A stretch of DNA of 64,000 nt. It comes from an uncultured Planctomycetales bacterium (GTDB lineage Bacteria; Omnitrophota; Gorgyraeia; Gygaellales; Profunditerraquicolaceae). Shown one piece after another: positions 215-62,834 of this stretch (its first letter is position 1; each line of letters opens with the position of its first letter). The position numbers and the translations under genes are program-made. The stretch covers positions 17,226 to 81,225 of the forward strand of contig CAYXSY010000001.1 of assembly GCA_964467905.1 (NCBI GenBank), read 5' to 3'. The notes under the pieces were generated by a model. That model was not told the origin of the DNA. It ran no database searches and saw only the letters and a program-made list of their open reading frames with translations.

Positions 215-238
215 TTGGTTTCCTTTTTTCAAATTAAA

Positions 239-892: not shown

Positions 893-895
893 CGC

Positions 896-1885
896 TTAAT
901 TTCCCTTACCCTTATCTTTCTTGAACAAATCAAGAAATCTGTCTTCATATTCCTTATAAACATTCCACTTATCAAGTTCATCTTTAAGTTCAGCTGCTTT
1001 GGCTATATCTTTCCTGGCTAAAGAAAATAATTTCTCTATCCTTTCCTTAACCGATATCGGCAGATGCGTCAGCTGGCCCAAGGCCTTCTTAATCTTTTCA
1101 ACATCCTCTTCTCCTATGGGGCCGCTTGTCTGGGAACCGATCTTTAAGTAATCAAGGAACCTGTTGATATCCTCCTCTATCGCCTGTGCCTGCGCGGCAA
1201 GAGTAGATAAGTCTATACTTATCTGTAATATCTTACAAAGCGTATCAAGAACTGCTAAAGAGGCTTTGGGATTCTCTATCTGTATTGTATACAGAGGAAT
1301 CTGCCCCAACAGACAAAAGCCATTAATCCCCTGTGACTTAGCTAAACCTATAAACAAACCGTTCATCCCGCTTATCTGGCCCTCATTAAAAAGATTAATG
1401 TTATATTTCTTAAGATTGGCCAATAGCTGCGGTGAAGTTGCGGCAAAATAAACCGAGCATTCCTGGGTATGGTCTACCGGCTGCGGCATAGCGGCAAAAG
1501 CTATAACCATCTTTACCTTACAACGCACAGCCAGCTTAATAATTCTTGAACAATAATCTTCGGCTTTGGCCAAATCAGGCTGCGCTTCGCTTATAAAAAT
1601 AATCAAGTCATTGCCTCGCGTCTTATTTTCGGCCTTACCTTGGTTATTCTTCCAATAGTAAAATTTACCCGTGGGCAGATTCGGGACTGACAATATACCG
1701 GAATCCACGTTACTGCCGGTAAGATAAAAGAACTCCTCCGAAGGAATCTGCGCAAACTCAACACATTTAAGATGTTCTACCAAATACTTAGCGGCCTTAA
1801 AAGCTACTTCGCCCATCCCGGGCCAAGCTACTATCAAATAAGGGTTTTTCAGCCTCGGAACTTTATTGACATTTATCCCTTCCAT
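896..1885 (-). CDS. PAC2-family protein (proteasome assembly chaperone 2-like) with charged coiled-coil C-terminal extension
   Basis: 329-aa ORF. The N-terminal LKNPYLIVAWPGMGEVAFKAAKYL and overall layout are recalled as typical of bacterial PAC2-family proteins. The last ~90 aa are a K/E-rich helical region. Confidence 0.55.
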   Translation of the reverse strand: MEGINVNKVPRLKNPYLIVAWPGMGEVAFKAAKYLVEHLKCVEFAQIPSEEFFYLTGSNVDSGILSVPNLPTGKFYYWKNNQGKAENKTRGNDLIIFISEAQPDLAKAEDYCSRIIKLAVRCKVKMVIAFAAMPQPVDHTQECSVYFAATSPQLLANLKKYNINLFNEGQISGMNGLFIGLAKSQGINGFCLLGQIPLYTIQIENPKASLAVLDTLCKILQISIDLSTLAAQAQAIEEDINRFLDYLKIGSQTSGPIGEEDVEKIKKALGQLTHLPISVKERIEKLFSLARKDIAKAAELKDELDKWNVYKEYEDRFLDLFKKDKGKGN

Positions 1886-1905
1886 AAAATATACTCCTGT
1901 GTTGT

Positions 1906-3033
1906 TTAGATTTTTCTATAATTAATAAGAAAATCTTCTAAGATCCTTGCTCCTTTATAAAGATTATCTACAGTTACGTACTCGTCTTTTGAATGGGCGC
2001 AGGCGCCTACTCCGAAGCCGGTTGCAATAGCAGGAATTTTTTTATCCTGAAAAAAAGTAATTACTGTAGCCCCCTCGGAACCGGTAATCTTATGTCTTGC
2101 CTTAAACTTACGCATGGACTTAGAAAGCGACCGCACCATATTATGATTATTGCAGATAGAATACGGTTTCTGTATGCCATCTATCTCTATTATAAACCTT
2201 CTTGCATGTTTGGCAACAATCTTTCTTAGGGTTTTTAATATGTCCTGCTGATGCATACCGGGGAGCGATCTGATATCCACTTCAAAAGAGCACCAATCAG
2301 CTACAATATTTACCTTATCCCCACCATGAATTGTCCCTATATTCACTGTAGGAGCCCGAAGATAATGATTTTTCTTATACCTAAACCTATGGCCCTGAAG
2401 CTCGCGGATAATGTCTACGGCTTTATTAATCGCGTTATCCCCCAAATGCGGGTAAGCTCCATGTGCTCTTTTTCCAAAAACCTTTACTCTTATATGCATA
2501 AGGCCTTTTTGAGCCACCACAATTGCGAAATCATCAGCGTCAAGAATCAAGGCCTCATCAACCTTAAGCAGCCCTTTTCTTAACAAGGGTATCAGCCCAA
2601 GCCCTGAACCGGTCTCTTCATCGGCACTGGCTGCAAAAACAAGATTATAGCCTAAGGTTTTTTTATCTTCGGTTATACTGTTTATCGCTTCTATGGCGCA
2701 GGCCAAATTGACCTTACAATCCGTAGCGCCTAAGCCGTATATTTTTCCGTCTCTGATAATACCTGAGAAAACCGGCACGCTCCAGAAACTGCCCGCGGGT
2801 ACCGTGTCCAGGTGCGGGCTTATCAACAAAGAATTCCCGTTGTTTGATGATTTTAATACAGCAATTATGTTAGAACGCCTGTTGCTGAATTCATATATTT
2901 TAGAACGGATACCTATTCTTTTTAAATAGCTGCCTACAAAAGAAGCTATTTCTCTCTCGTTGCTGCCTGGATTCTGCGAGTTGATACGGATTAAATCACG
3001 CAAAAGTTTTATAAGGCGTTTTTTATTAATCAT
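1906..3033 (-). CDS. M20-family metallopeptidase (ArgE/DapE-like deacylase)
   Basis: 375-aa ORF with SPHLDTVP, GATDCK and ADEETGS motifs typical of the ArgE/DapE/M20 family. It overlaps the upstream gene by 8 nt. Confidence 0.75.
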   Translation of the reverse strand: MINKKRLIKLLRDLIRINSQNPGSNEREIASFVGSYLKRIGIRSKIYEFSNRRSNIIAVLKSSNNGNSLLISPHLDTVPAGSFWSVPVFSGIIRDGKIYGLGATDCKVNLACAIEAINSITEDKKTLGYNLVFAASADEETGSGLGLIPLLRKGLLKVDEALILDADDFAIVVAQKGLMHIRVKVFGKRAHGAYPHLGDNAINKAVDIIRELQGHRFRYKKNHYLRAPTVNIGTIHGGDKVNIVADWCSFEVDIRSLPGMHQQDILKTLRKIVAKHARRFIIEIDGIQKPYSICNNHNMVRSLSKSMRKFKARHKITGSEGATVITFFQDKKIPAIATGFGVGACAHSKDEYVTVDNLYKGARILEDFLINYRKI

Positions 3034-3688
3034 TTTTTCTCCTAAGAAACTCGCTCAGTGGGCACAAAGAACACCTTGGCTTGTTTTTCAGGCAATAATC
3101 CTTGCCAAGCCGCACCAGAAGCGCGTGGTATTCGTTAAATAATTTTACATCTCTCTTTAAGTTGCGCATAAATATTTCTTGAATATCTGTATAGGTAGAA
3201 CCGTCTTTTGCTAATTTATGGCGCGCAAGAATCCTCTTTGTATAGGCATCGACCACAAATACCGGCTTATTTAGCGCATATAAAAGAATGGAATCAGCTG
3301 TTTCCTGCCCTATCCCGTTTACTTTAAGCAAATCCTGCCGCAGTACTAAAATATCCTTTTGGGGCATCTCGGCAATATTCATGCGGCAGTAATCGGAGAG
3401 AAATTTAAGAAAATACTTAATGCGCTTTGCCTTAACGTTATAATAACCTGCCGGCCTTATTAGTTTTGCCAATTTAACTAAAGGAATTTTATCCATCCTG
3501 CGTGGATCTAACAATCTCTGCTTCTTAAGATTGGCTATAGCCTTTTCTACATTCAGCCAGCTTGTATTTTGAGTCAGTATCGCCCCGAGCATAACCTCAA
3601 AAGCGCTATCTGCCGGCCACCATTTTTGAGCCCCGAAGAAAGTGAAAAGCTTGCTGTATATAGCGTAGAGTTTATGTGACTGGCTCAT
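3026..3688 (-). CDS. Endonuclease III-related HhH-GPD domain protein
   Basis: 220-aa ORF. It has LGAILTQNTSW, a helix-hairpin-helix LLKVNGIGQETAD followed by VVDAY, and the C-terminal Cys cluster CLKNKPRCSLCPL. Confidence 0.75.
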   Translation of the reverse strand: MSQSHKLYAIYSKLFTFFGAQKWWPADSAFEVMLGAILTQNTSWLNVEKAIANLKKQRLLDPRRMDKIPLVKLAKLIRPAGYYNVKAKRIKYFLKFLSDYCRMNIAEMPQKDILVLRQDLLKVNGIGQETADSILLYALNKPVFVVDAYTKRILARHKLAKDGSTYTDIQEIFMRNLKRDVKLFNEYHALLVRLGKDYCLKNKPRCSLCPLSEFLRRKND

Positions 3689-5637
3689 TCTTCTTTAAAT
3701 GCTAACGGGTTATAACGGCGATAAGCAAAAAATGCATAGGCACTGGCTGACAGAGAACCAGTCGAGCTGCCCTTAGGGGTAGACCAACCGTGCCCGGTAT
3801 CAACGAATTCCTCTGTTGCATAAGGCAGGCAGAAATCCCCCTGCCCCGAAGCAGAAGGGCTTGTAATTATCATGCTGCCCAGGCTATCCAGATAGTCATC
3901 CGCTAAAGTCTGGTAGGATTTTGCTTTGGATTGATTTTGTTTATGTTCCCAAAAATCCGCCATAATCTGATAAGAAATAACCATCTGTGCTGTCCACTCC
4001 GCAGAAACCACTTGTCCTCTTGCAAGGTGCCTTTGGGGAGCGAAATCAAAACCTTTTATCTTAACCTGTATTCCGTCCGGCCTTTTATACAAAACCTCCA
4101 CCGCCATATTATCCTGGGCAAAATTTATAATCTTATCCGGTGACATTGATAATTCCAAAAGCTTTTCCGGGCCTATTGCCGCAATTGACCAGGCATAGGT
4201 GTCGGTAGCAATTGTAGAATCTCCCTTACCGCGCTTTACGGGGACATCGGCTTTATCATATGTATGTTTTTCTATCCAAGACATGATCTTATCCCGAGAC
4301 TGGGAATAATCTTTATTATTTGTCAAAGAGTAAAGCATATTTAGAAAAGCATAGGCATCGAGATTATGCTCCGTAGAATACCAGCTAACCTGCGGTCCGC
4401 CGCGTAGCCCACCATCGCTATCCTGTTTTTGAAAAGCAATTATTTTATCTGCTATATCCTGCGCTAAAACCAAGTAAGAATTATCGCCGCTTTTCTTGGT
4501 ATATTGCATGGCTAATATGCCTATCCATATGTTCGGGCCGGTATGCACAATGCATTCGGCAGGAGAACCATCATCAAAATAATATGCGTTAAAAAACCAC
4601 CCCTGTGAGCGCTGGGCCTTATTCTTGAAGAAATCAAGCATCTTGCGCACGCGCCCAAAATCATTACCAAGCATATAAACCTGCCCTGCCAAAGACTGAT
4701 CATAAATAAAAGCCCAATCCCGAATATCATTATCCCCTTCAAAACTTAATACCAGCCCTGTACGAGGATTTTGATGTGCTGTTATCCAGCGGTAAACTCC
4801 CGCAAAATTACTCTTTTGAAGTTCTGCCTTTTCATTTCCCAAACGAGACAATTCTTCATTCAGGCTCTGCTGCGCCTGACCCAGGCTATCTAGCTGTGCC
4901 CTAAGCCTGTCTTTATCTTTAATCAGAAGATCAATCTGGGTATTAAGCTCTGCAATCTTCTTTGCTTTCTGTCTATTCTTTGCCTTCTCATTTTGAAGCA
5001 CCTGAAAACGAAGCTGCAAACCTTTTATTTGGTCTTGGAGCTTTTCTCTTCCCGATTCTATCTCTTTTAGATCTTTTCTTGCCGATAAATAATCTCGCCT
5101 GATTTGATTAAGCTGCTCTATCAAAACATTCTTCTGCGATGTTAAAATAACATTCTCTGAACTTAGAGTAATGTTTTCTCTGTGATTACCCCACAAAACT
5201 AAACCTAAAAATAGAAAAGCAGTCAAGGCAACCAAGGGCAGCAGCCTCTTTATATGCGCATACAGAATAATCCTGCTATTACTCTTAGCATCTATTTTTT
5301 CATACTCTACTCCGATGATATGCTTGTCAGGCGTTTTATTGTCTTGTGTTACCCATGACGGTATACCTAACGCAGATATAGGTTGAGAACTTACCGGCAT
5401 ATCAATAAGAAGAGAGAGTTTTACCTCTTTGTTCTTCAACATAAGCAATAACGGCTCAGGGATATTGTTGCCTACCAGACAAATCCCCCCCTTAGCTACA
5501 TTAGCGGTAAACCCCTGCATCCAATCGCAAACAAATTCACCGTTGGGAACTTTCAACATCCTGAATTGCACCGGGAACACGGAATTAAGACGGATATATT
5601 TACGCCTGTTTTTGGCTAAATTATCGCTCTGCTTCAT
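3685..5637 (-). CDS. PilZ domain - single TM - long coiled coil - C-terminal (alpha/alpha)6-like (six-hairpin glycosidase-like) domain protein
   Basis: 650-aa ORF. The N-terminus has the PilZ motifs RRKYIR (RxxxR) and TANVAKGG (D/NxSxxG-like). A hydrophobic helix LLPLVALTAFLFLGLVLWG follows, then ~150 aa of heptad-rich Q/K/L sequence. The remaining ~350 aa are rich in W/Y/D repeats (GLVLSFEG..DWAFIYDQSLA, WYSTEHNLDAYAF). It overlaps both neighbours by 4 nt. Confidence 0.6.
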   Translation of the reverse strand: MKQSDNLAKNRRKYIRLNSVFPVQFRMLKVPNGEFVCDWMQGFTANVAKGGICLVGNNIPEPLLLMLKNKEVKLSLLIDMPVSSQPISALGIPSWVTQDNKTPDKHIIGVEYEKIDAKSNSRIILYAHIKRLLPLVALTAFLFLGLVLWGNHRENITLSSENVILTSQKNVLIEQLNQIRRDYLSARKDLKEIESGREKLQDQIKGLQLRFQVLQNEKAKNRQKAKKIAELNTQIDLLIKDKDRLRAQLDSLGQAQQSLNEELSRLGNEKAELQKSNFAGVYRWITAHQNPRTGLVLSFEGDNDIRDWAFIYDQSLAGQVYMLGNDFGRVRKMLDFFKNKAQRSQGWFFNAYYFDDGSPAECIVHTGPNIWIGILAMQYTKKSGDNSYLVLAQDIADKIIAFQKQDSDGGLRGGPQVSWYSTEHNLDAYAFLNMLYSLTNNKDYSQSRDKIMSWIEKHTYDKADVPVKRGKGDSTIATDTYAWSIAAIGPEKLLELSMSPDKIINFAQDNMAVEVLYKRPDGIQVKIKGFDFAPQRHLARGQVVSAEWTAQMVISYQIMADFWEHKQNQSKAKSYQTLADDYLDSLGSMIITSPSASGQGDFCLPYATEEFVDTGHGWSTPKGSSTGSLSASAYAFFAYRRYNPLAFKEE

Positions 5638-8084
5638 TTAATCCTTTCTAATACAACTCTTTGTTTCACCTTCTTAGCCAACCCTTCGAACAAATGCTTG
5701 AAAGCGGGATAATCATTTTGCGTTATTATCCTTTTCTTTAATACTATTCTTTGGGTAAAGCGCAGTTTATTATTTTTAAAATCATACCTGAATATAAAAT
5801 TCATCCACGGGTTATCTTCTTCAACGCTGCCGGGCATATGCTTGACGGTAAAACCCTGCGGCAACTTAATTTCAACAATGTCTTCCTTGTCATATAAGAC
5901 CCCTGCATCAAGCGGATATTTACGGCTGTCTTTTGCTACAGAAGAAGTATCAAGCCCGCCTAATTGCGGCAGTATCCTCAAATTTCCTGCCTGCGTAAAA
6001 TACTCCGAACCGTAGAATGAATATTTCAAAATAACAGGCTTATTCAGATCATTTACATTTTCAGTGCTATATCCTTCAAGTTTAGCCCCTATGGATATCT
6101 TTTGTATGGCCTCTTTTAAAGCCTGCTCCACTAATTCCGGAGGAGTATATAAAAGCCAGAAGCGCTGAGATTGGTCATACCTGCCGTGGGTTGAGGCGGT
6201 CTTTGAAGCATTGATGCTTTCATCCTTATTCACATTGATATTAATAATCTGCTCTACCGAGTTATGCTCCGCGGGATAAAACGGAGTACGGGATATCAAA
6301 TAGCCGCTTTCTTTAAAGATTAATACTGATCTGTCCTGGTCCATCTGCGGCAGATCACCGAAAGAACAAGTCTGCGCCGTAGGATCAAGAAAAATCAAGT
6401 CACCGTTAAAATCTACGCAGGCTATGCAATGGTTAAAAAGCACTGCAGGGAAGCTCTCGTTTAAATTATAGTAATCATCTGTAGGAATAAGCACCAGGTA
6501 CGCCGAGAATCCGGCCTCTCTTAACATAGTTACCAAAAGAACGGCCTGATCTTTACAATCGCCGTATTTATTCCTGAAGATATCCTCTGCCCTGTGCGGC
6601 TCATAACCTGCCTGGCCATATTCAACAGCTACGTAACGTATATCTTTGGCGCAGAAATTATAAATTGCCCTTATCTGGTCTTCTGGTGGCTTTAACCCTT
6701 TAATCAAATCTTTCACTTTATCCTTTATCGCGTCACTAGGAGCGATCTTATCTCTAGCGAGAGTCCACCACCAGTTATAAATTTCCTGCCATGAATCAAA
6801 AGTAGAAATAAGCATAGTGGTATTAATCTCGGTGTCAGGCGGCATACTTGGCTCAGGGATTATCTGCGGGATATCGCTAAAATCCCATTTATATAATTTA
6901 TAACCGTTAATTTTCTCAACCTTCGGCTCCAAGGAAACCTTAAAACTGTTATACTCTTGGTTCAGGAAACGCATATTAATCTTTGTTTTATCAGGAATCT
7001 TAACTGTAAATCTTGCCCTGATAACCGGCTCTTGCGCCTGGACGGGGTAGCTAAGTACAAAATCTTTTTTATTAATCAACTGGTTCCTTTTTATTTTAAG
7101 CTTATACTCAATGCAAGAACCATCAGTAATCTCAGGAAAAGAAATAATAAAAACCCTGACATTGCTGTAAAGCGGAAAATTAAGATACTTGGAAACATTC
7201 CTGATATGCCGCGACCCGACATTTATTACTTCTCCGTCAGGTTTAATGGTGCGCGCATATTCCAACTCTACCTTTTCATAAGTAGAATCATATTCTATCT
7301 GTATTTCGGAGAAATCCTCCCTGCCCCTCTGGTTTAATATCTTTACCAAATAATGCATCTGGCTTATTTGGTTATATTCAGAATTAACCTCTATCTGTTC
7401 ATCGCAATACAAAATAAGCCCCCCCGCCTGAGGATAGTTTTCTGCTTTAGGAGCAGCAGAAATAATATTATATATATCGCTATCCACGTCCTTTATATAG
7501 GAGGCTAAGGTATCCTTCTCAATAATATCTAATCTCTGTTCAGCCAAAAATTTAAATTGCGGGACTTTTATATTTTTATATGTAGCCAGGGCGCGGTCAA
7601 AGAGATTAAGTTTTTCTTCAGTCAGGCCTTTATAATAGAGAGATTCTGCATCCTCTGTTTTCATCTTATCGAAAACCTCCAGGGCATCGGTAAACTGCCC
7701 GAGCCGATAATAAGAGATAGCGATGAACTTCTCGGCTTTCGGTTCTTTTGCTTTCTTTAAGACTGAGAGCGCATTTTCAAAATCACCGCGAGAATAATAA
7801 AGCATCCCTAAATCAAAATATGTTTTCGCGGAATTATCTGCCTTAGTAAGAAGCGTCTTATATTGCGCAACTGCCTGCTGGTAATAATAATCGGAACGCT
7901 CGGCATCTTTCTTAGCATTTGCGGAATCGTCCGGTTTTATACAACCATAAATAGAACATATAAAAATAACCGCCAGAAATGCAATAATAAAGTGCGCCTT
8001 TATAAACATGATTGCCTTACGCATAAGCCGATAACTTTGTAACTTATTTCTTATATCTATAATACGCATTGCATGCTCCTTCAT
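5634..8084 (-). CDS. TPR / DUF3857-like / transglutaminase-core / DUF3858-like lipoprotein
   Basis: 816-aa ORF with a lipobox (FICSIYGC), TPR-like repeats (YFDLGMLYYSRGDFENA..) and a transglutaminase Cys motif (YGDCKDQAVLLVTMLREAGF). The track start overlaps hypD by 41 nt. The internal start MRKAIMFIK.. at 8024 gives a cleaner signal peptide. Confidence 0.7.
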   Translation of the reverse strand: MKEHAMRIIDIRNKLQSYRLMRKAIMFIKAHFIIAFLAVIFICSIYGCIKPDDSANAKKDAERSDYYYQQAVAQYKTLLTKADNSAKTYFDLGMLYYSRGDFENALSVLKKAKEPKAEKFIAISYYRLGQFTDALEVFDKMKTEDAESLYYKGLTEEKLNLFDRALATYKNIKVPQFKFLAEQRLDIIEKDTLASYIKDVDSDIYNIISAAPKAENYPQAGGLILYCDEQIEVNSEYNQISQMHYLVKILNQRGREDFSEIQIEYDSTYEKVELEYARTIKPDGEVINVGSRHIRNVSKYLNFPLYSNVRVFIISFPEITDGSCIEYKLKIKRNQLINKKDFVLSYPVQAQEPVIRARFTVKIPDKTKINMRFLNQEYNSFKVSLEPKVEKINGYKLYKWDFSDIPQIIPEPSMPPDTEINTTMLISTFDSWQEIYNWWWTLARDKIAPSDAIKDKVKDLIKGLKPPEDQIRAIYNFCAKDIRYVAVEYGQAGYEPHRAEDIFRNKYGDCKDQAVLLVTMLREAGFSAYLVLIPTDDYYNLNESFPAVLFNHCIACVDFNGDLIFLDPTAQTCSFGDLPQMDQDRSVLIFKESGYLISRTPFYPAEHNSVEQIININVNKDESINASKTASTHGRYDQSQRFWLLYTPPELVEQALKEAIQKISIGAKLEGYSTENVNDLNKPVILKYSFYGSEYFTQAGNLRILPQLGGLDTSSVAKDSRKYPLDAGVLYDKEDIVEIKLPQGFTVKHMPGSVEEDNPWMNFIFRYDFKNNKLRFTQRIVLKKRIITQNDYPAFKHLFEGLAKKVKQRVVLERIK

Positions 8085-9162
8085 TTGAAATCATACACGG
8101 GCCGATTGGATTAATTGTGGTGCACACTTTAGCGAACAATGAACAATCGCTGGGATTGATTAACCCCTTTAAAACATCGCCACATCTGCATTTATCATAA
8201 ACTCTGCCTAATCGTTGATTCAAATATCCCTCTTTTAATGGCAATTGTTCCTCGGCGTCAAAATCACAGTACTGTTTCCTGGCTTTCAAGCCGCTCAAAG
8301 GCACTCTACCTAATCCGCGCCAATCGGCATCGGCAGGCATAAAGACCTGAGAAATAAGTTTTCTTGCCTGCGCATTTCCTGAAGCGCTGACTACCCTTGT
8401 GTATTGATTCTGGACTACAGCAGAATCTTTAGCTATCTGCTCAACAATAAAATATATCCCCTCTAATATATCCAAGGGTTCAAATCCGGCTATACAACAG
8501 GGAATTTTATACCTGCGCGGTATAAACTTGTACGCCTGCTCTCCGGTAACGACTGAAACGTGCCCGGGGCAAAGGAAACCGTCAACTTTTACCCGCTCAT
8601 CCCTGAGGAGATGCTCCATAACGGGAGGAATTAATTTCAACGAAGAAAAGAAAAACAGGTTATTTATCTTTTGTTTCTTTGCCAAAACTATGCTTATCGC
8701 TATCGTCGGTATGGTTGTCTCGAATCCCACCGCCAGAAATATTATATTCTTCGAAGGGTTGTCATTAGCAATTTTTAAACTATCGAGCGCAGAATACGCT
8801 ATCTTCACGTTAGAGAATCTTACACGCGCCTCCTCCAGAGTAGAAACCGAGCCCCTTACACGCAGCATATCTCCGAATGTAACGACAATATTTTCTTTCT
8901 CTTTGGCGTAAGCAATGGCCTTATCAATATAATCCCGTGGTGAAACACATACCGGGCACCCCGGACCGGAAATAAATCTTATATTATCCGGCAAAACCTT
9001 ATCCAGCCCAAAACGAAAAAAGTTATGGGTATGTGTACCGCAGACTTCCATAATATTTATCCTGCGCCCGGGAATAATAGACTTTATGACCCTGACTAAC
9101 TTATCAGCCAATTTCTTATTTCTGAAATCATCAACGTATTTCATCCCGTCAGAAATCTCCAT
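8044..9162 (-). CDS. hypD: Hydrogenase maturation protein HypD
   Basis: 372-aa ORF with CGTHTH, GPGCPVCV and GFETT motifs characteristic of HypD. Confidence 0.9.
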   Translation of the reverse strand: MEISDGMKYVDDFRNKKLADKLVRVIKSIIPGRRINIMEVCGTHTHNFFRFGLDKVLPDNIRFISGPGCPVCVSPRDYIDKAIAYAKEKENIVVTFGDMLRVRGSVSTLEEARVRFSNVKIAYSALDSLKIANDNPSKNIIFLAVGFETTIPTIAISIVLAKKQKINNLFFFSSLKLIPPVMEHLLRDERVKVDGFLCPGHVSVVTGEQAYKFIPRRYKIPCCIAGFEPLDILEGIYFIVEQIAKDSAVVQNQYTRVVSASGNAQARKLISQVFMPADADWRGLGRVPLSGLKARKQYCDFDAEEQLPLKEGYLNQRLGRVYDKCRCGDVLKGLINPSDCSLFAKVCTTINPIGPCMISNEGACNAYYRYKK

Positions 9163-42489: not shown

Positions 42490-42726
42490 CTATTCTCCTA
42501 TCTGTGACTCATCGAGCGGCTTTAACTCAAATTCGCCCTTTTTGTTTTTCATCAATACATCTATCTTCTTCTTAGCTGCGTCAAGCCTGACAGAACACTG
42601 CCTGGAAAGCTCGATGCCTTCCTGATACTTTTTTAATGCCTCATCCAAAGATAAATCGCCTTTTTCAAGCTCATCAACTATCTTCTCTAATTTTTTAAGT
42701 GCTTCCTCAAATTTTATTTCTGCCAT
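42490..42726 (-). CDS. xseB: Exodeoxyribonuclease VII small subunit
   Basis: 78-aa ORF with FEEALKKLEKIVDELEKGDLSLDEALKKYQEGIELSRQC. Confidence 0.9.
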   Translation of the reverse strand: MAEIKFEEALKKLEKIVDELEKGDLSLDEALKKYQEGIELSRQCSVRLDAAKKKIDVLMKNKKGEFELKPLDESQIGE

Positions 42727-42875
42727 ATTTTCAAACCTCCGTATAAAATTTTCGTCAACCGCCCGGCCTCACTGGCTCGGCCGGCGCGCTAAACGGCGCT
42801 CCTTATTCGTCGCGCCAGCGCCCTCAAATTTTATTTCTGCCATATTTTCAAACCTCCGTATAAAATTTTCGTCAA
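42705..42875. repeat. Perfect 54-bp direct repeat pair (42705..42758 and 42822..42875) flanking a 63-bp GC-rich insert
   Basis: Both copies read cctcaaattttatttctgccatattttcaaacctccgtataaaattttcgtcaa and were checked base by base. Each copy contains the xseA stop context, the SD and the first 7 codons of xseB. The insert 42759..42821 contains the hairpin ccggcc-N10-ggccgg. Confidence 0.9.
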
Positions 42876-51101: not shown

Positions 51102-51206
51102 ATCCCGCTCTTTTTGGCTTTATTTAGCCGAAGCTAACAATAACCAAAAGAGCGGGATTATTTCGGCCAAACAATTTACGATCATTCCGTTCCGTAAATT
51201 GTGGCC
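51102..51206 (-). other. Two consecutive strong hairpins in the rarA 5' leader, one capped by a nested UUCG tetraloop
   Basis: Hairpin A pairs atcccgctctttttgg (51102..51117) with ccaaaagagcgggat (51144..51158) and has an inner ttagc-ttcg-gctaa. Hairpin B pairs ggccaaacaatttacg (51165..51180) with cgtaaattgtggcc (51193..51206). Confidence 0.7.
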
Positions 51207-51211
51207 TCAAT

Positions 51212-51390
51212 AAAAAAATCCCCGCATTGTGCCGTTGAGCTTAGATGGGCTAAACCTTTTGGGTTCAGGTGGGTGCCCTATCCCTAACACCGCAGTGTTA
51301 AGAAACTCTGGGCTCCCTTAGTTATTCTGTTGGTTCACCATACATCCTTTAGCCAACGCGCACCGCAGGGATTATTTAAGAGCAACTTTC
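51212..51390 (-). ncRNA. Candidate ~179-nt structured small RNA (6S-RNA-like in size and architecture; identity unverified)
   Basis: It lies in the largest non-coding gap of the window. A near-consensus promoter sits upstream. The 5' end AAUCCCUGCGGUG pairs with the 3' end CACAAUGCGGGGAUU, followed by U7. Internal helices include GGCUAAA/UUUAGCC, CGUUG/CAACG and CUUAACAC-UGCG-GUGUUAGG. Confidence 0.45.
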
Positions 51391-51427: not shown

Positions 51428-53473
51428 CTAACGCAGCTTAACGCCTAATTTATCAATTAGTATGCTGGTAATCTGAGTATTTAAAGGGTTAACCTCTGAT
51501 TCGGTCAGCGTGCGCTCAAAAGAACGGTAAACGCATGATATAGTAAGCCCCTTAAAACCATTGGGGATTTGTTTGCCTTTATAATAATCGCTTACATTAG
51601 CGCTTTCAAGCAAATCTGCTCCATTTTGTTTGACTATGCGCAATATATCTTCAACTTTAATGCTATTTTTGACAACAAAACTGATGTCACGGGTTATCGC
51701 AGGATAAACCGGCAGCGGTTTAAATACTTTTTTATCCTGGGCACAAGAAAAAATATCGTCTAATTTTACCTGCGCTACAAAAACATCCCTATTTTTTACA
51801 TCCAGTTTTTCTAATGACCGCTTGCCTAAACCTGCCATAAACCCGCATTCGCTGTTGCCAAGTTTTATAATAATTTGCCCGTGGGCTCTATCTTCCTCAA
51901 AGCAATAGTTATCTATCCCAAAATAAGAACATATCTTGCTTATTATTCCTTTGACATGCAAAAGCCCCATAGTTTCTTTGGCAAGCCCGCCTTCAGACAA
52001 CCTTTTCCTTTCGCCCGAGATGGCGATTGCCAAAACCAGATCCTCTTTAATAGAGTTACTTCGAGAAAAAACTCTGGATATCTCAAAAACATTAACTAAA
52101 TCCTGTTTTTGATTAAAATTGTATGCAACGCACTTGGCTATGCTAGGAATTACTGTCTGTCTTAAAACTGCCTGGTCTTTGCTTAAAGGATTAGCAACCC
52201 TGACCATACTGCCCTCTATTGTCGCTGCCGTTGTGTCTGTAATACTGGCGTAATCTTCCGGGACAAGGGTATGAGTAATGACTTCATTGAGGCCCAGTCC
52301 GGATAGAAGCCCTCTCAACGAAGCCAGCATATTTATTTCTCTGGAATCTTCCGGGGCCGGCTTAATTGACGGTAAACTAACCGGTATTTTATCATAACCG
52401 AACACCCTGGCGATTTCTTCAACTAAATCGATTTCATGATTAACATCCTGGCGAAAAGGCGGGATAACAACACCGAATGCAGCCCCGCTATTCTTGATTT
52501 TAAAACCGAGGTTATTTAATATGGCTTTAATCTTGGCTTCGGGAATATCCACCCCCAATATAGCGGCTGCTGTTTTTGCTTTTAAATTAATAACTTTTGG
52601 CTTCATGGATACGCTGCCGCAAGACAAGCCCAAGACAAGCTTTCCGGAAGTTAAATTATTGATTAAATCCGCGGCCCTATAAGATGCATTTATCACCGTT
52701 TCGGAATCTATGCCCCTCTCAAACCTATAGCTGGACTCCGTCTGCAAACCCAGCTTCTGTCTGCAACGGCGGATAAGCACAGGGTCAAAAATAGCCGCTT
52801 CAAGAAGAATGTTTTTAGTGCGCTCGTCAACTTCGCTATCCCAGCCTCCCATAATACCGGCTGCTGCAAGCGGTTTTTTCTCATCGGCAATGACCAAAAT
52901 GTCTTTGTCTATCTGTCTTTCTTTACCGTCTAATGTCAGCAACTTCTCTGTGCCGAGTCCGCGGCGCACTATTATTTTATCACCCGGTATTTTATCCAGG
53001 TCAAACGCATGCAACGGTTCTCCCGTCTCAAATAAAACATAGTTTGTAATATCAACTATATTATTTATGCTGCGGCAACCGACGGCCTCGAGTCTATTTT
53101 TCATCCATTGCGGCGATGGCCCGACTTTGACTCCTTGAATAATTTTAGCCGTATATAACGGGCAGTCTTTCTTATTTTCTATCTCTATTTTTAATAGACG
53201 TGAATCTCGTGTTTTGTTGCTGATTTTCTGTTGTATCTTTGACTTTTGCAGTTTGATTTTTGATTTTGTAATTGCCGCGACCTCACGTGCGATCCCAGAA
53301 ACGCTAAGCCAGTCCGGACGGTTAGAAGTAATTTCTATCTCAAAAACAAAATCTCCTTCTCTATTTTCCAAAGAAACCACCTCAAGCCCCGCCATAGTAA
53401 GCCTGTCCGCCAGCTCTTGAGGCGCTATCTTAATATCTACAAAATCCCTTAACCAATTGTAAGTTACCTTCAC
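51428..53473 (-). CDS. pheT: Phenylalanine--tRNA ligase beta subunit, lacking the B2 tRNA-binding OB domain
   Basis: 681-aa ORF with a GTG start. It has YNWLRDFV, then MAGLEV followed after only ~22 aa by SNRPDWLSVSGIAREVAA, and B3/4, B5 and FDX-ACB-like regions are present. Confidence 0.9.
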   Translation of the reverse strand: MKVTYNWLRDFVDIKIAPQELADRLTMAGLEVVSLENREGDFVFEIEITSNRPDWLSVSGIAREVAAITKSKIKLQKSKIQQKISNKTRDSRLLKIEIENKKDCPLYTAKIIQGVKVGPSPQWMKNRLEAVGCRSINNIVDITNYVLFETGEPLHAFDLDKIPGDKIIVRRGLGTEKLLTLDGKERQIDKDILVIADEKKPLAAAGIMGGWDSEVDERTKNILLEAAIFDPVLIRRCRQKLGLQTESSYRFERGIDSETVINASYRAADLINNLTSGKLVLGLSCGSVSMKPKVINLKAKTAAAILGVDIPEAKIKAILNNLGFKIKNSGAAFGVVIPPFRQDVNHEIDLVEEIARVFGYDKIPVSLPSIKPAPEDSREINMLASLRGLLSGLGLNEVITHTLVPEDYASITDTTAATIEGSMVRVANPLSKDQAVLRQTVIPSIAKCVAYNFNQKQDLVNVFEISRVFSRSNSIKEDLVLAIAISGERKRLSEGGLAKETMGLLHVKGIISKICSYFGIDNYCFEEDRAHGQIIIKLGNSECGFMAGLGKRSLEKLDVKNRDVFVAQVKLDDIFSCAQDKKVFKPLPVYPAITRDISFVVKNSIKVEDILRIVKQNGADLLESANVSDYYKGKQIPNGFKGLTISCVYRSFERTLTESEVNPLNTQITSILIDKLGVKLR

Positions 53474-53591
53474 CCCGTTACAAACCTCCTACTCTTCCCC
53501 TCATAATATAGTTTGTAACGGGGTTCACCCAAAACCGTTACAAACCTCCTATCTTGCCCCCGCCACAAAATATTTTGTAACGGGATTCATC
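53474..53591 (-). repeat. Two tandem ~55-60-nt hairpin units between pheS and pheT, each carrying UAGGAGG in its loop side
   Basis: Unit 1 pairs ccccgttacaaac with gtttgtaacgggg (53474..53523). Unit 2 pairs ccgttacaaa with tttgtaacgg (53535..53584). Both contain ccgttacaaacctcct. The 3' arm of the proximal unit runs into the pheT GTG. Confidence 0.8.
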
Positions 53592-54635: not shown

Positions 54636-55093
54636 AAGAAAATTACTACTCCCAATAAAATTAAGGTTAAAACTACCTTATCTGTGTTAAGGCGCTCTTT
54701 AATATCCCTGCCGGCATTAATTCTGCGCACGGTCTGTGCGTGGATATCCAAATCTCCACCATGAGCAGAGCAGGCCCGATTAAAAATACCGGTTACCTCC
54801 AAAATATCGCCTTTTGATTTATAGCTCCCGCTGTATTCTATAATCTTGGAATCATCAGCGCTCATCCATATACCTATTGCATTAGAACCATCGTTTAAAT
54901 TAACCCATGCGGAAGCCCCTCTAATCATAACGTCACCAATAACCTCGCCCTTATAAAATATTTCCTTGCCATCATAGACCTTGGCGTTACTCAATAACTC
55001 GGAGCTAGAGACTACCGGTTGCGCTAAACATAAAGATGTAGATAAACATAAGAATAACAATATGATTAATATTGAGATCGTTGACTTAATCAT
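54605..55093 (-). CDS. Membrane-anchored secreted protein with OB-fold-like core (signal peptide plus C-terminal TM), function unknown
   Basis: The track ORF extends to 55225 inside trkH. The internal ATG 55093 gives MIKSTISILIILLFLCLSTSLCLAQP.. and overlaps the trkH stop by 4 nt. The C-terminal helix is VVLTLILLGVVIFLWILSLL. The 3' end overlaps the pheS start by 31 nt. Confidence 0.5.
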   Translation of the reverse strand: MIKSTISILIILLFLCLSTSLCLAQPVVSSSELLSNAKVYDGKEIFYKGEVIGDVMIRGASAWVNLNDGSNAIGIWMSADDSKIIEYSGSYKSKGDILEVTGIFNRACSAHGGDLDIHAQTVRRINAGRDIKERLNTDKVVLTLILLGVVIFLWILSLLKKN

Positions 55094-56592
55094 TTTCCCC
55101 TCACCACTGCCACGAAAACCCCTAGCAAGGTAAATATAGACATAAATTCCAGACGCCCTGCCCACATTTGTATTATATAAACTATCTTTAGAACGTCCGG
55201 CATGGATGTATTCGTTATCCCGCAAGACAATCCGACATTTGCTGCTGCAGAAGTAGATTCAAATAATGCGCTTAAGAATGGGTACCCTAACCATACAGCT
55301 ACTATGGCGCCTAAAAAATATAATCCTATATATAGCAAGCTCATGGTTGCTGCTGAACGCACCTGCGCATCCTCCAAAATCGTGTCTTTTATATGATGAA
55401 ACTTCTGGACGATTATTGCTCTCTCCGGCAACATTATTTTCTTTACATCCTGAACCAGCGCCTTAAAAATAATACTTATACGCAACATTTTTATAGCACC
55501 GGTAGTAGAACAAATGCTCCCCCCCAAAGCCATAGCACAAATAATACCGAACACAGATAAAACACTCCATTCGTTCATAAACTGTAGGGAGTAAATTGTC
55601 TGATAACCCGTGCCTGTTTGGGCTGATATGAACTGATAAAATCCCTTTCTGAATAAAATCACTGCTCCGGGATAAACCTGAAATTTAAAAAGGCCCAAAC
55701 AAACCACAAAGAATGTTATAAGAATGGCGATAAAAAAAGTGCGTGTTTCTAAATTCCTGAAGATCTCCCTACGATTCCCCATCCATAAATGATAGTGCAG
55801 CTTAAAATTAATTGCGCCTAAAATCATCAAGATTACGGTTACGGTCTCAAATAGAAAGCTATGATAATAAAGAATGCTTTGGGAGTTAGGGGTAAAACCT
55901 CCAGTATCAAAGGCAGCCATAAAAATACATGCCCCATGGAAAAAAGCACTACTTAATTTCTGGCCATCAACAATGCCTATTAACCCAAGAATCAGAGTCC
56001 CCAAAACCAGATAAACGACACTAACGAGCCATATAAATCTGGAGGTGTCTATTACATTAGGCATGATTCTTTCCTCGCGCGCCTCTCCTACATACATCTT
56101 AAAGGCCCCCGAAAAACCCTTAACAAAAAAAGACAAAGCGACTATAACTATGCCTTGTCCACCTATAAACATAGTTAGATGTCTCCAAATATTGTGGGCA
56201 AATGATAAGTGGTCTAAATCCTGTACCAGCGCCAGGCCTGTCGTGGCAAAACCAGACATAGCGTCAAAACAGGCATCTAGATAGCCTGCCCAATGTCCGC
56301 TAAGATATAAAGGAATGGCGCCCAGCAAAGCGGCAACTACCCATGATAAAGAAACAACCACCATGCCATGCATCCAGTTAAGGTCTCTGTCGGTATAACA
56401 AAGTTTTCTTAAGATAAGAGAAAAGATGAAGGCTACTTCTATGGCGATGATAAAATCCAACACAGGATTTATTTCCCAATAAGCAAGGCCAATAAGAATA
56501 GGCACAATCATGGTAATACCTAAACCAAAAATGATTTTGCTTAAGTAATATCCTACTATTTTAGCATCTTCTAGGCGGGGTTTAAGAATCAT
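55090..56592 (-). CDS. trkH: TrkH/KtrB-family potassium transporter membrane subunit
   Basis: 500-aa polytopic ORF with repeated selectivity-filter-like motifs (SGFATTGL, FDTGGF, AQTGTGY, ANVGLS). Confidence 0.88.
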   Translation of the reverse strand: MILKPRLEDAKIVGYYLSKIIFGLGITMIVPILIGLAYWEINPVLDFIIAIEVAFIFSLILRKLCYTDRDLNWMHGMVVVSLSWVVAALLGAIPLYLSGHWAGYLDACFDAMSGFATTGLALVQDLDHLSFAHNIWRHLTMFIGGQGIVIVALSFFVKGFSGAFKMYVGEAREERIMPNVIDTSRFIWLVSVVYLVLGTLILGLIGIVDGQKLSSAFFHGACIFMAAFDTGGFTPNSQSILYYHSFLFETVTVILMILGAINFKLHYHLWMGNRREIFRNLETRTFFIAILITFFVVCLGLFKFQVYPGAVILFRKGFYQFISAQTGTGYQTIYSLQFMNEWSVLSVFGIICAMALGGSICSTTGAIKMLRISIIFKALVQDVKKIMLPERAIIVQKFHHIKDTILEDAQVRSAATMSLLYIGLYFLGAIVAVWLGYPFLSALFESTSAAANVGLSCGITNTSMPDVLKIVYIIQMWAGRLEFMSIFTLLGVFVAVVRGK

Positions 56593-62283: not shown

Positions 62284-62357
62284 TGGGCGGTACAGGACTC
62301 GAACCTGTGACCCTCACAATGTCAATGTGATACTCTAACCAACTGAGCTAACCGCCC
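62284..62357 (-). tRNA. tRNA-Val (anticodon GAC)
   Basis: Hand-folded: acceptor GGGCGGT/ACCGCCC, D arm GCTC-AGTTGGTTA-GAGT, anticodon arm TCACA-TTGACAT-TGTGA, T arm ACAGG-TTCGAGT-CCTGT. Confidence 0.88.
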
Positions 62358-62499
62358 GATATTCTTTTCAAATCTAAGGTTAGCGAACTCCTTTTAACCA
62401 ACGACGAGGAATACTTTTGTATTCCGAGGAGTGCCCGCTTGCTTTTTGCGGGCCTGAGCTAACCGCCCGATATTCTTTTCAAATCTAAGGTTAGCGAAC
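62343..62499. repeat. Perfect 46-bp direct repeat pair (62343..62388 and 62454..62499) flanking a 65-bp two-hairpin insert, duplicating the 5' end of tRNA-Val
   Basis: Both copies read ctgagctaaccgcccgatattcttttcaaatctaaggttagcgaac and were checked base by base. Copy 1 includes the first 15 nt of tRNA-Val plus 31 nt upstream. The insert contains ggaatac-N4-gtattcc and gcccgc-N9-gcgggc. Confidence 0.9.
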
Positions 62500-62544
62500 C
62501 CCTTTCTCTATCGGCCTTGCCAGCCAATTACGTTCGCTCAAGTG

Positions 62545-62579
62545 CCATTTGATTTTTCCTTATCGGAAAAATCAAATGG
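62545..62579 (-). other. Perfect 15-bp-stem hairpin immediately trailing tRNA-Leu(UAA)
   Basis: ccatttgatttttcc-ttatc-ggaaaaatcaaatgg. On the transcript the 5' arm starts with the last CC of the acceptor stem plus the discriminator A. Confidence 0.8.
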
Positions 62580-62659
62580 GCAAGGAGGGAGTTGAACCCT
62601 CACGACCTTACGGCCAACAGATTTTAAGTCTGTCGTGTATGCCATTCCACCACTTGCCC
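62577..62659 (-). tRNA. tRNA-Leu (anticodon UAA)
   Basis: Hand-folded: acceptor GGGCAAG/CTTGCCC, anticodon arm ACAGA-CTTAAAA-TCTGT, long variable arm, T arm GAGGG-TTCAACT-CCCTC. Confidence 0.88.
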
Positions 62660-62726
62660 GAAACTTACCTTCTGAGATACTGCGCTCGCTCACTCGGCTT
62701 GTCGCCTCGTGATACTCGCACAGTAT

Positions 62727-62761
62727 CCATTAAAATTTTCCGACAAGGAAAATTTTAATGG
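62727..62761 (-). other. Perfect 15-bp-stem hairpin immediately trailing tRNA-Cys, same design as the tRNA-Leu trailer
   Basis: ccattaaaattttcc-gacaa-ggaaaattttaatgg. On the transcript the 5' arm starts with the encoded CCA end of tRNA-Cys. Confidence 0.8.
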
Positions 62762-62834
62762 AGGCGACGAGCGGATTCGAACCGCTGCAATAGCTCTTTT
62801 GCAGAGAGCTGCCTTACCACTTGGCTACGTCGCC
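62759..62834 (-). tRNA. tRNA-Cys (anticodon GCA), CCA encoded
   Basis: Hand-folded: acceptor GGCGACG/CGTCGCC, anticodon arm GCTCT-CTGCAAA-AGAGC, T arm AGCGG-TTCGAAT-CCGCT, 3' TCCA. Confidence 0.88.

Follow-up and report, generated by a model that had tools for sequence, protein, structure and literature searches.

The stretch of DNA analysed here (64,000 nucleotides, called the window below) contains two short repeat-insert-repeat units, one at the 5' end of an intact tRNA-Val(GAC) gene and one at the start of xseB (Table 1). At tRNA-Val, the first-pass annotation had described perfect 46-bp repeats around a two-hairpin insert, and this layout holds: 62343-62388 and 62454-62499 agree at 46/46 bases with 111 bp from start to start, and allowing a single mismatch (T at 62394, C at 62505) lengthens the match to 52 bp. 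Because the tRNA-Val gene is placed at 62284-62357 on the minus strand, each repeat comprises 31 nt of the upstream leader and tRNA nucleotides 1-15 (62357..62343), as had been noted. The 65 bp at 62389-62453 hold both hairpins named earlier, with folding z-scores of -3.2 and -4.2; 0/200 shuffles were equally stable. In the tRNA direction, the last 13 nt of the insert are TTGGTTA followed by AAAGGA, and the latter agrees at 5/6 nt with the bases preceding the distal repeat. Since TTGGTTA stands after both hairpins, the distal tRNA fragment consists of nucleotides 1-22, interrupted after nucleotide 15. One 111-bp period is thus built from a 31-nt leader, tRNA nucleotides 1-15, two near-perfect hairpins, the 7-nt remnant of nucleotides 16-22 and AAAGGA. 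In the proximal copy, the leader sequence GCTAACC (62384..62378) pairs with GGTTAGC at tRNA nucleotides 5-11 (62353..62347). The flank beyond the distal repeat includes GATAGAG-AAAGGG; by resemblance alone, this could be what is left of the 3' block from an older module that has degenerated.

Table 1. Features of the tRNA-Val locus and of the xseB unit (window positions)
Feature	Position	Strand	Description
tRNA-Val(GAC), intact	62284..62357	-	ARAGORN; Rfam tRNA model, 70.3 bits
Proximal repeat copy A	62343..62388	-	31-nt leader (62388..62358) and tRNA nt 1-15
AAAGGA	62389..62394	-	lengthens the repeat to 52 bp; AAAGGG at 62500-62505 differs at one base
TTGGTTA	62395..62401	-	remnant of tRNA-Val nt 16-22, read from sequence
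Blocks ACTCCTC and TCGTCG around hairpin 2	62402..62432	-	conserved in L019 and L030 unit 1
Hairpin 2	62408-62425	-	GGAATAC AAAA GTATTCC, within 62402..62432
Hairpin 1	62433..62453	-	GCCCGC N9 GCGGGC, adjoining nt 15 of the truncated tRNA copy
Distal repeat copy A	62454..62499	-	second leader and truncated tRNA-Val 5' end (nt 1-15 at 62468..62454)
Flank from tRNA-Leu to distal repeat	62500..62576	-	includes GATAGAG-AAAGGG; tRNA-Leu trailer hairpin at 62545-62579
xseB unit A-X-A	42705..42875	-	A = 54 bp, X = 63 bp (42759-42821)

Comparison with other Omnitrophota revealed a related module just upstream of tRNA-Val in at least six other lineages. The order is constant: tRNA nucleotides 1-15 come first, two hairpins follow, the D-loop sequence is then taken up again (TTGGTTA...), and a leader with complementarity to tRNA nucleotides 3-11 precedes the intact gene. 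This architecture lies directly upstream of tRNA-Val at loci L019, L030 (two tandem units), L058, L070 and L045 (cut by the contig end), and remnants are present in L071 and in the empty allele L061. The D-loop resumption TTGGTTA(A)GAG is common to L019, L030, L045, L058, L070 and L071. The AAAGGA of the window belongs to the conserved block TTGG..AAAGG.GTTCGCTA of this family, in which the GTTCGCTA-plus-anti-sequence leader pairs with nucleotides 3-11 of the next tRNA copy. In short form, the module block reads TTGGTTAAGAGG-GTTCGCTA. Motif scans of ~0.92 Mb placed the module blocks at tRNA-Val only, with orientation and position fixed relative to the gene. In the genomes with a homologous module, ThrS shares only ~71-76% amino-acid identity with that of the window, a distance at which neutral spacer DNA should not align. 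Judged by sequence comparison, the Val insert is a local copy of a conserved tRNA-Val-specific module and not fresh foreign DNA. The idea of a general process that places ~64 bp of arbitrary structured DNA is therefore not supported here, since the insert is homologous to elements at the same position in distant Omnitrophota.

The family is patchily distributed and dynamic. Most Omnitrophota tRNA-Val genes have no module, and many of them lie 9-15 nt after tRNA-Leu. The 15-nt copy matches the genome's own tRNA at 15/15 positions in the window, L019, L030 unit 2, L058 and L070, with diverged adjoining leaders; in L019, L030 and L070 the identity between the two copies is limited to ~15 nt. Degeneracy grows with distance from the tRNA, as in L030 unit 1, which retains 13/15 of the tRNA 5' end, and in L019 unit 0, whose anti-sequence has decayed. 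The distal fragment of L030 (GGGCGCT...) has the tRNA-Val 5' variant of other lineages and not its own, and differing insert types adjoin within the single arrays of L030 and L019. A 62-nt repeat in L039 was set aside as a promoter-like segment common to tRNA-Leu and tRNA-Val genes, not a repeat-insert-repeat unit. With Rfam 15, the tRNAs alone reached the threshold, and the remaining matches had E-values of at least 0.036 and scores far under the gathering cut-offs.

We also observed that the Val module differs between otherwise identical contigs. In L061, the flanks are 100% identical to those of the window on both sides and exactly 111 bp are missing, namely the insert and one repeat copy, so that the locus has 0.4 periods versus 1.4 in the window. 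Another contig from the same sample as L061 (L002) is 100% identical to the window over 2.2 kb downstream.

The sister unit at xseB was also confirmed as first described, with 42705-42758 identical to 42822-42875 (54/54, period 117). Both units are real and have the same geometry, and their inserts, as stated earlier, have no sequence relation to each other. Copy A holds the xseA stop codon, the ribosome-binding site and the first 22 nt of xseB; the 63-bp insert is 75% GC, and distal A plus X encodes a 24-codon ORF, the sole ORF of at least 20 codons over the insert. The unit is identical in five independent assemblies (SPAdes, MEGAHIT k141, JGI and NCBI pipelines). Across related genomes the array has the form [A-X]n-A, where n is 0, 1 or 2, with 0.45 periods in L083, 1.46 in the window and L006-L010, and 2.45 in L084. 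The empty L083 and the A-X-A-X-A array of L084 have 100% identical flanks, and both X inserts of L084 are identical; its n = 2 comes from one short-read assembly, in which the copy number could be off by one. Every A copy carries the variant of its own lineage (GAAAATATGG twice in W, GGAAATATGG twice in U, GAAGATGG three times in T), while X is 97-100% conserved, with 0/63 changes in U (~12% flank divergence) and 2/63 in T (~20%). In more distant relatives, xseA and xseB are adjacent without the unit. A hairpin within the xseB repeat (AAATTTTAT/ATAAAATTT) parallels the Val leader hairpin in appearance; it is weak (-3.5 kcal/mol).

The first-pass annotation had taken the two units as independent instances of an active process. 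Of this, it is supported that both units are dynamic, given the exact 111-bp absence in L061 and the zero versus two copies of L083 and L084. The notion of arbitrary inserts is not supported at xseB either, where the same 63 nt (0-2 changes) occupy the same site in lineages 12-20% diverged. Because the inserts are conserved at fixed sites across lineages, the "two independent instances" are more plausibly two tandem modules, each specific to its locus, than two recent insertions by a single machinery. A scan for such repeat pairs recovered both in the 64-kb window, where they are the only two, and returned no further perfect pair of at least 40 nt with a real insert in ~860 kb of other Omnitrophota. 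A single 55-nt pair (L023) flanks a run of N, a scaffold gap, and a few 25-28-nt pairs are of other kinds.

A search for sources and mobile genes gave the following picture. Among 50 window ORFs scanned with Pfam, covering most of 0-57 kb, only housekeeping functions were seen, and neither transposase, integrase or reverse transcriptase genes nor cas genes; what the genes at 57-64 kb encode is taken solely from hits precomputed on homologous contigs, and a look-up of the window protein at 55090-56592 gave no record. With blastn-short, neither the Val nor the xseB insert had a second copy in the window or the 78 loci compared, and within ~0.92 Mb each insert occurs at one locus only. A third small structured insertion in the same window, at the pheT start codon 9 kb away, is a true MITE: its terminal inverted repeats measure 12-13 bp, the target duplication is 4 bp, and a second copy lies in another genome (L053).

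Several simple candidates were rejected. Phage-derived spacers were discarded after comparison of the inserts with 50,697 phage records (BLAST) gave chance hits only and four exact IMG/VR scans were empty. Adapter or linker contamination was likewise rejected: the inserts are not known to match any sequencing adapter, and the xseB unit recurs in independent assemblies. A self-cleaving ribozyme or viroid-like repeat was dropped, as Rfam gave no ribozyme match in either unit at E-values up to 10. Simple tandem duplication was rejected because the one-unit alleles repeat only 46-54 of 111-117 bp, and a staggered-cut insertion with a 59-bp duplication at tRNA-Val because the insert lies 7 nt inside the first copy, not at the junction.

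From these data, we consider it probable that the Val and xseB units are short, copy-variable tandem arrays at gene 5' ends, which derive from a conserved, locus-specific structured element and are turned over by recombination between their repeats. As in minisatellite-like VNTRs, the copies stand head to tail and their number differs between close genomes. We infer that the two 46-52-bp direct repeats would recombine by unequal RecA-type exchange or replication slippage, which would expand, contract and homogenise the arrays, remove or add the module as an exact unit and, by the same turnover, keep the repeats base-perfect. The first copy would most likely have arisen by integration of a module bringing its own leader and 5' end, and the target gene would thereby stay intact. 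Against the array reading, repeat deletion explains the step from filled to empty and not the formation of the first copy. In addition, the different insert types adjoining in L030 and L019 require separate acquisitions, and duplicating a unit already present would not suffice. Searches of the window, the loci, the phage records and IMG/VR turned up no donor for either insert, and those of the JGI contigs none for the Val insert. The nearly pure Watson-Crick, strand-symmetric stems and the assembly of the filled Val allele in the window only (both described below) also weigh against this reading.

The module might instead be a selected cis-acting RNA, a structured 5' leader of the tRNA-Val precursor that is kept by selection and not by mobility. 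The leader would sequester tRNA nucleotides 3-11, the truncated upstream copy would act as a decoy altering precursor folding or processing, and repeat recombination would merely add strain-level noise. Covariation, which counts for the array reading as well, speaks for this account. In an alignment of 9 sequences, the leader:tRNA helix is 92.6% paired with 3 compensatory pairs and a covariation score reached in 0/500 shuffles, whereas control alignments shifted by 1-3 columns pair only 16-44%. The anti-sequence tracks the tRNA variant: GCTAACC occurs with GGTTAGC, GCTATGAGC with GCTCATAGC, and GCTAAGC with GCTTAGC. Hairpin 2 retains 7 bp in the three closest units with 6/7 pairs altered on both sides, so that in these small samples compensatory changes maintain the pairs across lineages, as in a cis-acting leader structure. 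The predicted fold of the entire Val region is more stable than all 200 shuffles (z = -2.4). The fixed orientation and position of the module and the 15/15 tRNA copies beside diverged leaders also agree with selection. On the other hand, the module is missing from most Omnitrophota tRNA-Val genes, is present or missing in otherwise identical contigs and has no matching Rfam family. Furthermore, its stems are nearly all Watson-Crick, with 5 G-U among ~190 predicted pairs, and either strand folds equally well. This strand symmetry makes DNA-level pairing possible despite the compensatory changes, and together with the low G-U content it is more in line with palindromes at the DNA level, or with young mobile hairpins, than with an RNA under long selection. 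We regard selection on the RNA as a serious alternative that is nevertheless rather unlikely. As a conjecture, the leader could pair with the truncated copy instead within the precursor RNA.

It is also conceivable, but unlikely, that the Val module is a miniature site-specific integrative module, either circular and ~110-170 bp long or shrunk from something larger, which recombines within tRNA nucleotides 8-15. Its cargo would be the two hairpins, the D-loop remnant, the leader and tRNA nucleotides 1-15, of which 8-15 are invariant; the original 5' end would be displaced upstream, and the leader and 5' end of the module would complete the gene. Joining by an integrase in trans, or by RecA, would mirror the integrative elements at tRNA 3' ends. 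This account predicts the observed order exactly (leader, nucleotides 1-15, X, remnant, leader, nucleotides 1-15, rest of the tRNA). It also suits the heterologous cases L019, L030 and L070, which share ~15 nt between copies, the foreign 5' variant in L030, the mixed insert types with more degenerate outer units, and the patchy distribution. Like the att duplications at tRNA genes, the Val unit has a truncated tRNA copy in a direct repeat and a gene that is intact since the missing end is resupplied; an occupied site exceeds an empty one by precisely the element and a single repeat, and truncated copies build up at one tRNA in several lineages. Precedents in the literature are a recombinase element that separates a tRNA gene from a 5' tRNA fragment lying 1.8 kb upstream (PMC3293823), integrases targeting the 5' end of dusA (PMC4482086), and tRNA fragments as a recognised product of integrative-element events (PMC9897764). 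Unlike att pairs, the Val repeats enclose only 59-65 bp with no ORF and no integrase, the unit duplicates the 5' end with its leader and not the usual 3' end, and the tRNA fragment is broken in the D-loop after nucleotide 15 and then resumes. Moreover, no recombinase was found among the window ORFs scanned, a 111-bp DNA circle is mechanically implausible as a substrate, and none of ~30 tRNA-Val loci examined holds a full-length element. After Campbell-type entry from another lineage, one repeat would be of the donor type and the other of the recipient type, whereas all xseB repeats are of the local type.

A broader form of mobility, which we hold to be doubtful, is that Omnitrophota harbour tiny gene-less two-hairpin elements of ~60-110 bp that home to one gene 5' end (tRNA-Val nucleotide 15/16; the xseB start region) and enter with, or create, a ~50-bp copy of that end. 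The target gene would survive through this copy and the arrays would later expand and contract; a trans-acting recombinase on folded DNA, or long-stagger integration, are candidate machineries.

We find improbable a mechanistic form of the process proposed at first, in which nicks staggered by ~46-54 bp would let ~60-65 bp of structured DNA be joined and gap repair would then yield a long target-site duplication, resembling CRISPR spacer integration or IS1634-type elements. IS1634-type elements make very long direct repeats. The clean repeat-insert-repeat geometry of both units is as expected, every xseB repeat copy matches the local lineage as a target duplication would, the near-identity of the xseB insert across diverged lineages suits a recently active element, and small mobile hairpin elements are present in the genome (the pheT MITE). 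However, the Val insert ends in 7 nt of the target's downstream sequence, always at tRNA-Val, and with a simple staggered cut TTGGTTA would not fall between the insert and the second repeat. The repeat lengths (46/52, 52 and 54 bp) vary in a way unlike the output of a molecular ruler, the identical L084 inserts indicate amplification and not new insertion, and transposase and cas genes were not found among the window ORFs scanned. Like REP/REPIN elements and MITEs, the inserts are near-perfect, strand-symmetric, GC-rich hairpins in an AT-rich genome. In contrast to these, the whole inserts have no terminal inverted repeats, their ends being non-complementary (Val GCCCGC... and ...AAAGGA or ...TCGTCG; xseB GCGCTG... 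and ...GGGCGG); they are not multi-copy in the window and 78 loci, and the duplications are 46-54 bp, not 2-10 bp. The units also recall CRISPR arrays in that a duplicated host segment surrounds a short insert, inserts differ within the L030 and L019 arrays, and units appear older with growing distance from the tRNA. Unlike in CRISPR, the 5' ends of host genes make up the repeats, the inserts recur in conserved form in distant genomes instead of being unique, and the window ORFs scanned include no cas gene. To our knowledge, the insert and repeat lengths are far from any known CRISPR array pairing.

That the Val duplication arose spuriously when the window contig was built is very improbable: the filled allele is assembled in the window only, and neither the Val insert core nor the Val repeat was found in the JGI contigs scanned, but other lineages have homologous units with this architecture in assemblies unrelated to that of the window, and five assemblies made with different assemblers agree on the xseB unit. 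Moreover, L003 and L004, two k=31 Logan contigs that come from other samples, begin precisely 30 nt short of the repeat's tRNA-side end. A de Bruijn graph has to fork at that point if two different sequences follow the repeat. These break points are compatible with a filled Val allele, and the assembly artefact that the first-pass annotation named as a refutation is thus contradicted at both loci.

Among known elements, MIRUs (mycobacterial interspersed repetitive units, which serve as VNTR markers) are also comparable with the arrays that we propose. MIRUs form tandem arrays, and their copy number differs between strains. They are small, non-coding and apparently mobile units at gene starts in operons, in which a short ORF or ribosome-binding site keeps the downstream gene expressed (PMC12548453). 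The xseB array, present in 0, 1 or 2 copies that each bring a 24-codon ORF, is similar, as are the pheT elements. However, MIRUs are a dispersed family with shared sequence, whereas the Val and xseB inserts are unrelated and each known at one locus only in the ~0.92 Mb covered; nearly half of each Val or xseB period is duplicated host sequence, and the Val unit sits at a tRNA and not at a start codon.

If the array reading is true, an undescribed, conserved and covarying element that includes a truncated copy of the tRNA 5' end lies upstream of tRNA-Val in Omnitrophota, and strains within one species gain or lose it. This would then offer a natural test case for how small non-coding elements become established at gene starts while the gene survives, and for whether tRNA maturation is affected when a leader pairs with the tRNA 5' end, be a decoy copy present or absent. 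Arrays with 111-117-bp periods break short-read assemblies, and they are markers of strains in this uncultured phylum.

The Val unit lies in a minus-strand tRNA cluster that is followed by cpaF, thrS and infC. The architecture described in the first-pass annotation was confirmed in the window sequence. Two direct repeats, identical over 46 bp (52 bp with one mismatch) and 111 bp apart from start to start, each consist, in the direction of the tRNA, of 31 nt of leader and then tRNA nt 1-15, and they enclose 65 bp containing two perfect hairpins whose stability exceeds that of all 200 shuffles. The last 13 nt of this insert are TTGGTTA (tRNA nt 16-22) and AAAGGA, and AAAGGG precedes the distal repeat. 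The xseB unit, cited there as similar, is exact too, with 54-bp repeats, a 63-bp insert and a period of 117. Perfect 15-16-bp hairpins that include the tRNA 3' CCA end directly follow tRNA-Leu and tRNA-Cys; their loops are GAYAA-like, and a GC-rich module, GCACTYRAGCG...GAGTGC, often comes after them. The same arrangement, with compensatory stem changes, is found in other Omnitrophota (L030, L040, L068, L075).

Coordinates of the features in the window
Feature	Position	Strand	Remark
tRNA-Cys	62759-62834	minus	tRNA cluster
Hairpin after tRNA-Cys	62726-62762		
tRNA-Leu	62577-62659	minus	tRNA cluster
Hairpin after tRNA-Leu	62545-62579		
Val repeat, distal	62454-62499		
Val repeat, tRNA side	62343-62388		
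tRNA-Val(GAC)	62284-62357	minus	tRNA cluster
pheS-pheT element	53472-53590	minus	pheS-pheT junction
6S RNA gene	51215-51374		Rfam, 66.7 bits
57-nt element	51102-51158		adjoins 6S RNA gene
xseB unit	42705-42875		related loci L006-L010, L083-L085

The host, which is uncultured, belongs to Candidatus Omnitrophota, and its nearest species representative shows 64% amino-acid identity over a 681-residue query protein with PheT-type domains in its relative on contig L070. On the minus strand are 61 of the 64 chosen long ORFs. By synteny with L070, where positions 1-9000 carry dnaN, dnaA, rpmH, yidC, parA, parB, ndk and, further on, a tRNA cluster, the right end of the window is placed a few kb from the origin of replication.

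We observed that the Val unit is polymorphic: the window carries the filled allele and L061, a Logan contig from SRR29340344, the empty one. L061 spans the gene upstream of the cluster, tRNA-Cys and tRNA-Leu into tRNA-Val, and is 100% identical to the window minus exactly 111 bp, which is one repeat and the insert. Contig L002, from the same sample, stays at 100% identity to the window over the following 2.2 kb and is ~12% diverged beyond them; against window 62313-58168, both L002 and L001 switch sharply from 100% identity to ~12% divergence near 60100, inside thrS. The switch in L002 therefore indicates that genomes of this population are mosaics of recombined tracts, which arise by homologous recombination between lineages.

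Self-comparison of ~50 other Omnitrophota loci flagged L030, whose tRNA-Val is preceded by two units in tandem, and upstream regions were extracted from ~30 independent tRNA-Val genes. The window architecture is also present in L019, L030 (twice), L058, L070 and L045, the last cut by the contig end, and remnants are seen in L071 and in the empty allele of the window species. The module starts with tRNA nt 1-15, hairpin 1 and hairpin 2, after which the tRNA sequence resumes as TTGGTTA(A)GAG (nt 16-24); then come the block GTTCGCTA, 7-9 nt complementary to tRNA nt 3-11, ~20 A-rich nt and the intact tRNA. This order explains the TTGGTTA and AAAGGA that end the window insert. The insert can be aligned with those of L019 and L030 unit 1, with the blocks CTCCTC and TCGTCGTTGG..AAAGG.GTTCGCTA conserved, and hairpin 2 keeps 7 bp in all three while both sides have changed in 6/7 pairs. 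The helix between leader and tRNA tracks the three tRNA 5' variants present and is 92.6% paired with three compensatory pairs, its covariation score being reached by none of 500 shuffles; slid by 1-3 columns, only 16-44% is paired. Since ThrS of the module-bearing genomes is only 71-76% identical in amino acids to that of the window, unconstrained spacer DNA should be wholly unalignable. The conserved blocks occur only at tRNA-Val within ~0.92 Mb, and no Rfam family matches the module. In many other lineages tRNA-Val follows tRNA-Leu by 9-15 nt with no module, and some lineages have different mini-units. The Val unit is better described as one copy, varying between strains, of a conserved module specific to tRNA-Val, whose truncated copy of the tRNA 5' end is split by two hairpins; module and the gene's own 5' end form a minisatellite-like array, with a sister array at xseB.

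Among the mini-units, those of L036 (2450-2587) are 43 nt long and stand three in tandem; each is made of GGGCTCA, a CCCCC-TAC-GGGGG hairpin and GCTCAG, and their perfect repeats measure 28 nt. They are truncated tRNA-Val 5' copies of another kind than that in the window. So are a hairpin in L017 (~2215-2275), where a 5' copy pairs with its own complement, and copies upstream of tRNA-Val in L023 and L024. In lineage T, ~100 extra GC-rich, hairpin-forming nt are located between tRNA-Val and cpaF (L068 791-928, and L069), a spacer of 36 nt in the window, and the 176-nt Leu-Val spacer is largely unrelated to that of the window. Several lineages carry, just upstream of tRNA-Leu in the same cluster, a free-standing LAGLIDADG-type ORF (LRGLIDGDG) that is absent from the window: L030 ~1500-1830, between tRNA-Cys and tRNA-Leu; L071 434-1093, with a weak Pfam LAGLIDADG_3 hit on record; and L012, L018 and L037.

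At xseB, the repeat A takes in the stop codon of xseA, the RBS and nt 1-22 of xseB, and the insert X is 75% GC. In each unit a 24-codon ORF (MAEIKFEGAGATNKERRLARRPSQ) runs from the duplicated xseB start codon to a stop within the insert. The unit is present in three lineages, and more distant relatives lack it, their xseA and xseB being adjacent or overlapping; a contig of a fourth lineage, L085, begins with GG plus the repeat A, as expected if broken at a filled site.

The xseB array in three lineages
Lineage	Locus	DNA identity to window	Units	A variant	Changes in X
W	window, L008	99.9% (L008)	1	GAAAATATGG, twice	reference
U	L006, L007, L009, L010	~88%	1	GGAAATATGG, twice	0
T	L083	~80%	0		
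T	L084	~80%	2	GAAGATGG, three times	2/63, both in a loop

With flanks that match each other at 100% over 1.3 kb and 0.6 kb, L083 carries one A without an insert and L084 carries A-X-A-X-A; the two-unit state comes from one short-read assembly, and the two contigs may derive from related data. Even so, empty molecules are the only possible source of a k=141 contig that spans flank-A-flank. Copy number thus turns over far more quickly than point mutations build up, and within a given lineage the repeats are homogenised. Across lineages with 12-20% divergence, 97-100% of the insert is conserved; either it is constrained or its spread between lineages is recent.

As the simplest engine fitting both loci we infer recombination of the direct repeats with each other, in a short tandem array, through either unequal exchange or replication slippage; this would yield exact one-period deletions and expansions and keep the repeats identical. 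At 46-54 bp, the repeats have about the length from which such exchange is efficient in E. coli. Such recombination does not account for the first copy. Three observations point to repeated acquisition, at the tRNA-Val site, of modules with their own leader and 5' end: the arrays in L030 and L019 mix different insert types, degeneration of the units increases with distance from the tRNA, and the fragment in L030 has the tRNA 5' variant of another lineage. Integrative elements achieve the equivalent at tRNA 3' ends; for the 5' end there are a precedent from an archaeon (PMC3293823) and an integrase family whose target is the dusA 5' end (PMC4482086).

Other explanations were weighed against repeat recombination. 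The covariation and the 15/15-nt conservation of the truncated copy suggest a role as cis-acting RNA, in which tRNA nt 3-11 would be the leader's pairing partner and the truncated copy an alternative one; however, the stems contain almost nothing but Watson-Crick pairs and are symmetric between strands, the module is absent from most lineages, and contigs that are otherwise identical are found in both states. A classical integrative element is disfavoured, since the repeats enclose no coding sequence and no recombinase was found among 50 window ORFs scanned. Plain long-stagger insertion is counted against by the TTGGTTA remnant between insert and second repeat, the inserts being without terminal inverted repeats, no second insert copies having been found, and the identity of the two inserts in L084. 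An assembly artefact is very improbable: a fully assembled filled Val allele was not found outside the window, but the xseB unit recurs base for base in five independent assemblies from different assemblers, and the starts of two Logan contigs (k=31) assembled from other samples both fall exactly 30 nt before the tRNA-side end of the repeat, where the filled allele makes the graph branch.

The pheS-pheT junction contains two tandem 51-57-bp hairpin copies of an element with 12-13-bp terminal inverted repeats (CCCCGTTACAAA / TTTGTAACGGGG) and TGAA at its flanks, each copy containing AGGAGG. The GTG start of pheT is created by the last G of the proximal copy together with the duplicated TGAA, and an orphan ATGAA remains upstream; in most relatives, pheT starts with ATG within ~10 nt after pheS. 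A further copy is located at another site (L053 10187-10235), with TTGA at its flanks. This is a true miniature element, and it resembles the mycobacterial MIRUs, small units, apparently mobile, whose insertion at start codons affects the gene little (review PMC12548453). The 57-nt element beside the 6S RNA gene has 13-bp perfect arms (ATCCCGCTCTTTT / AAAAGAGCGGGAT).

In summary, the finding is real, and the Val unit is more than a one-off duplication. We rated it as akin to known kinds, namely tRNA-fragment repeats and intercistronic variable-number repeats; it could also reflect homing of gene-less hairpin elements by an undescribed mechanism, though this is rather unlikely. The first-pass annotation had proposed a process active in this genome, duplicating 5' gene boundaries and inserting ~64 bp of structured DNA. 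The Val insert is not arbitrary in this sense, being part of a conserved module, but the pheS-pheT element shows that this lineage does have small structured insertions where genes begin, and to that extent the first-pass idea holds.
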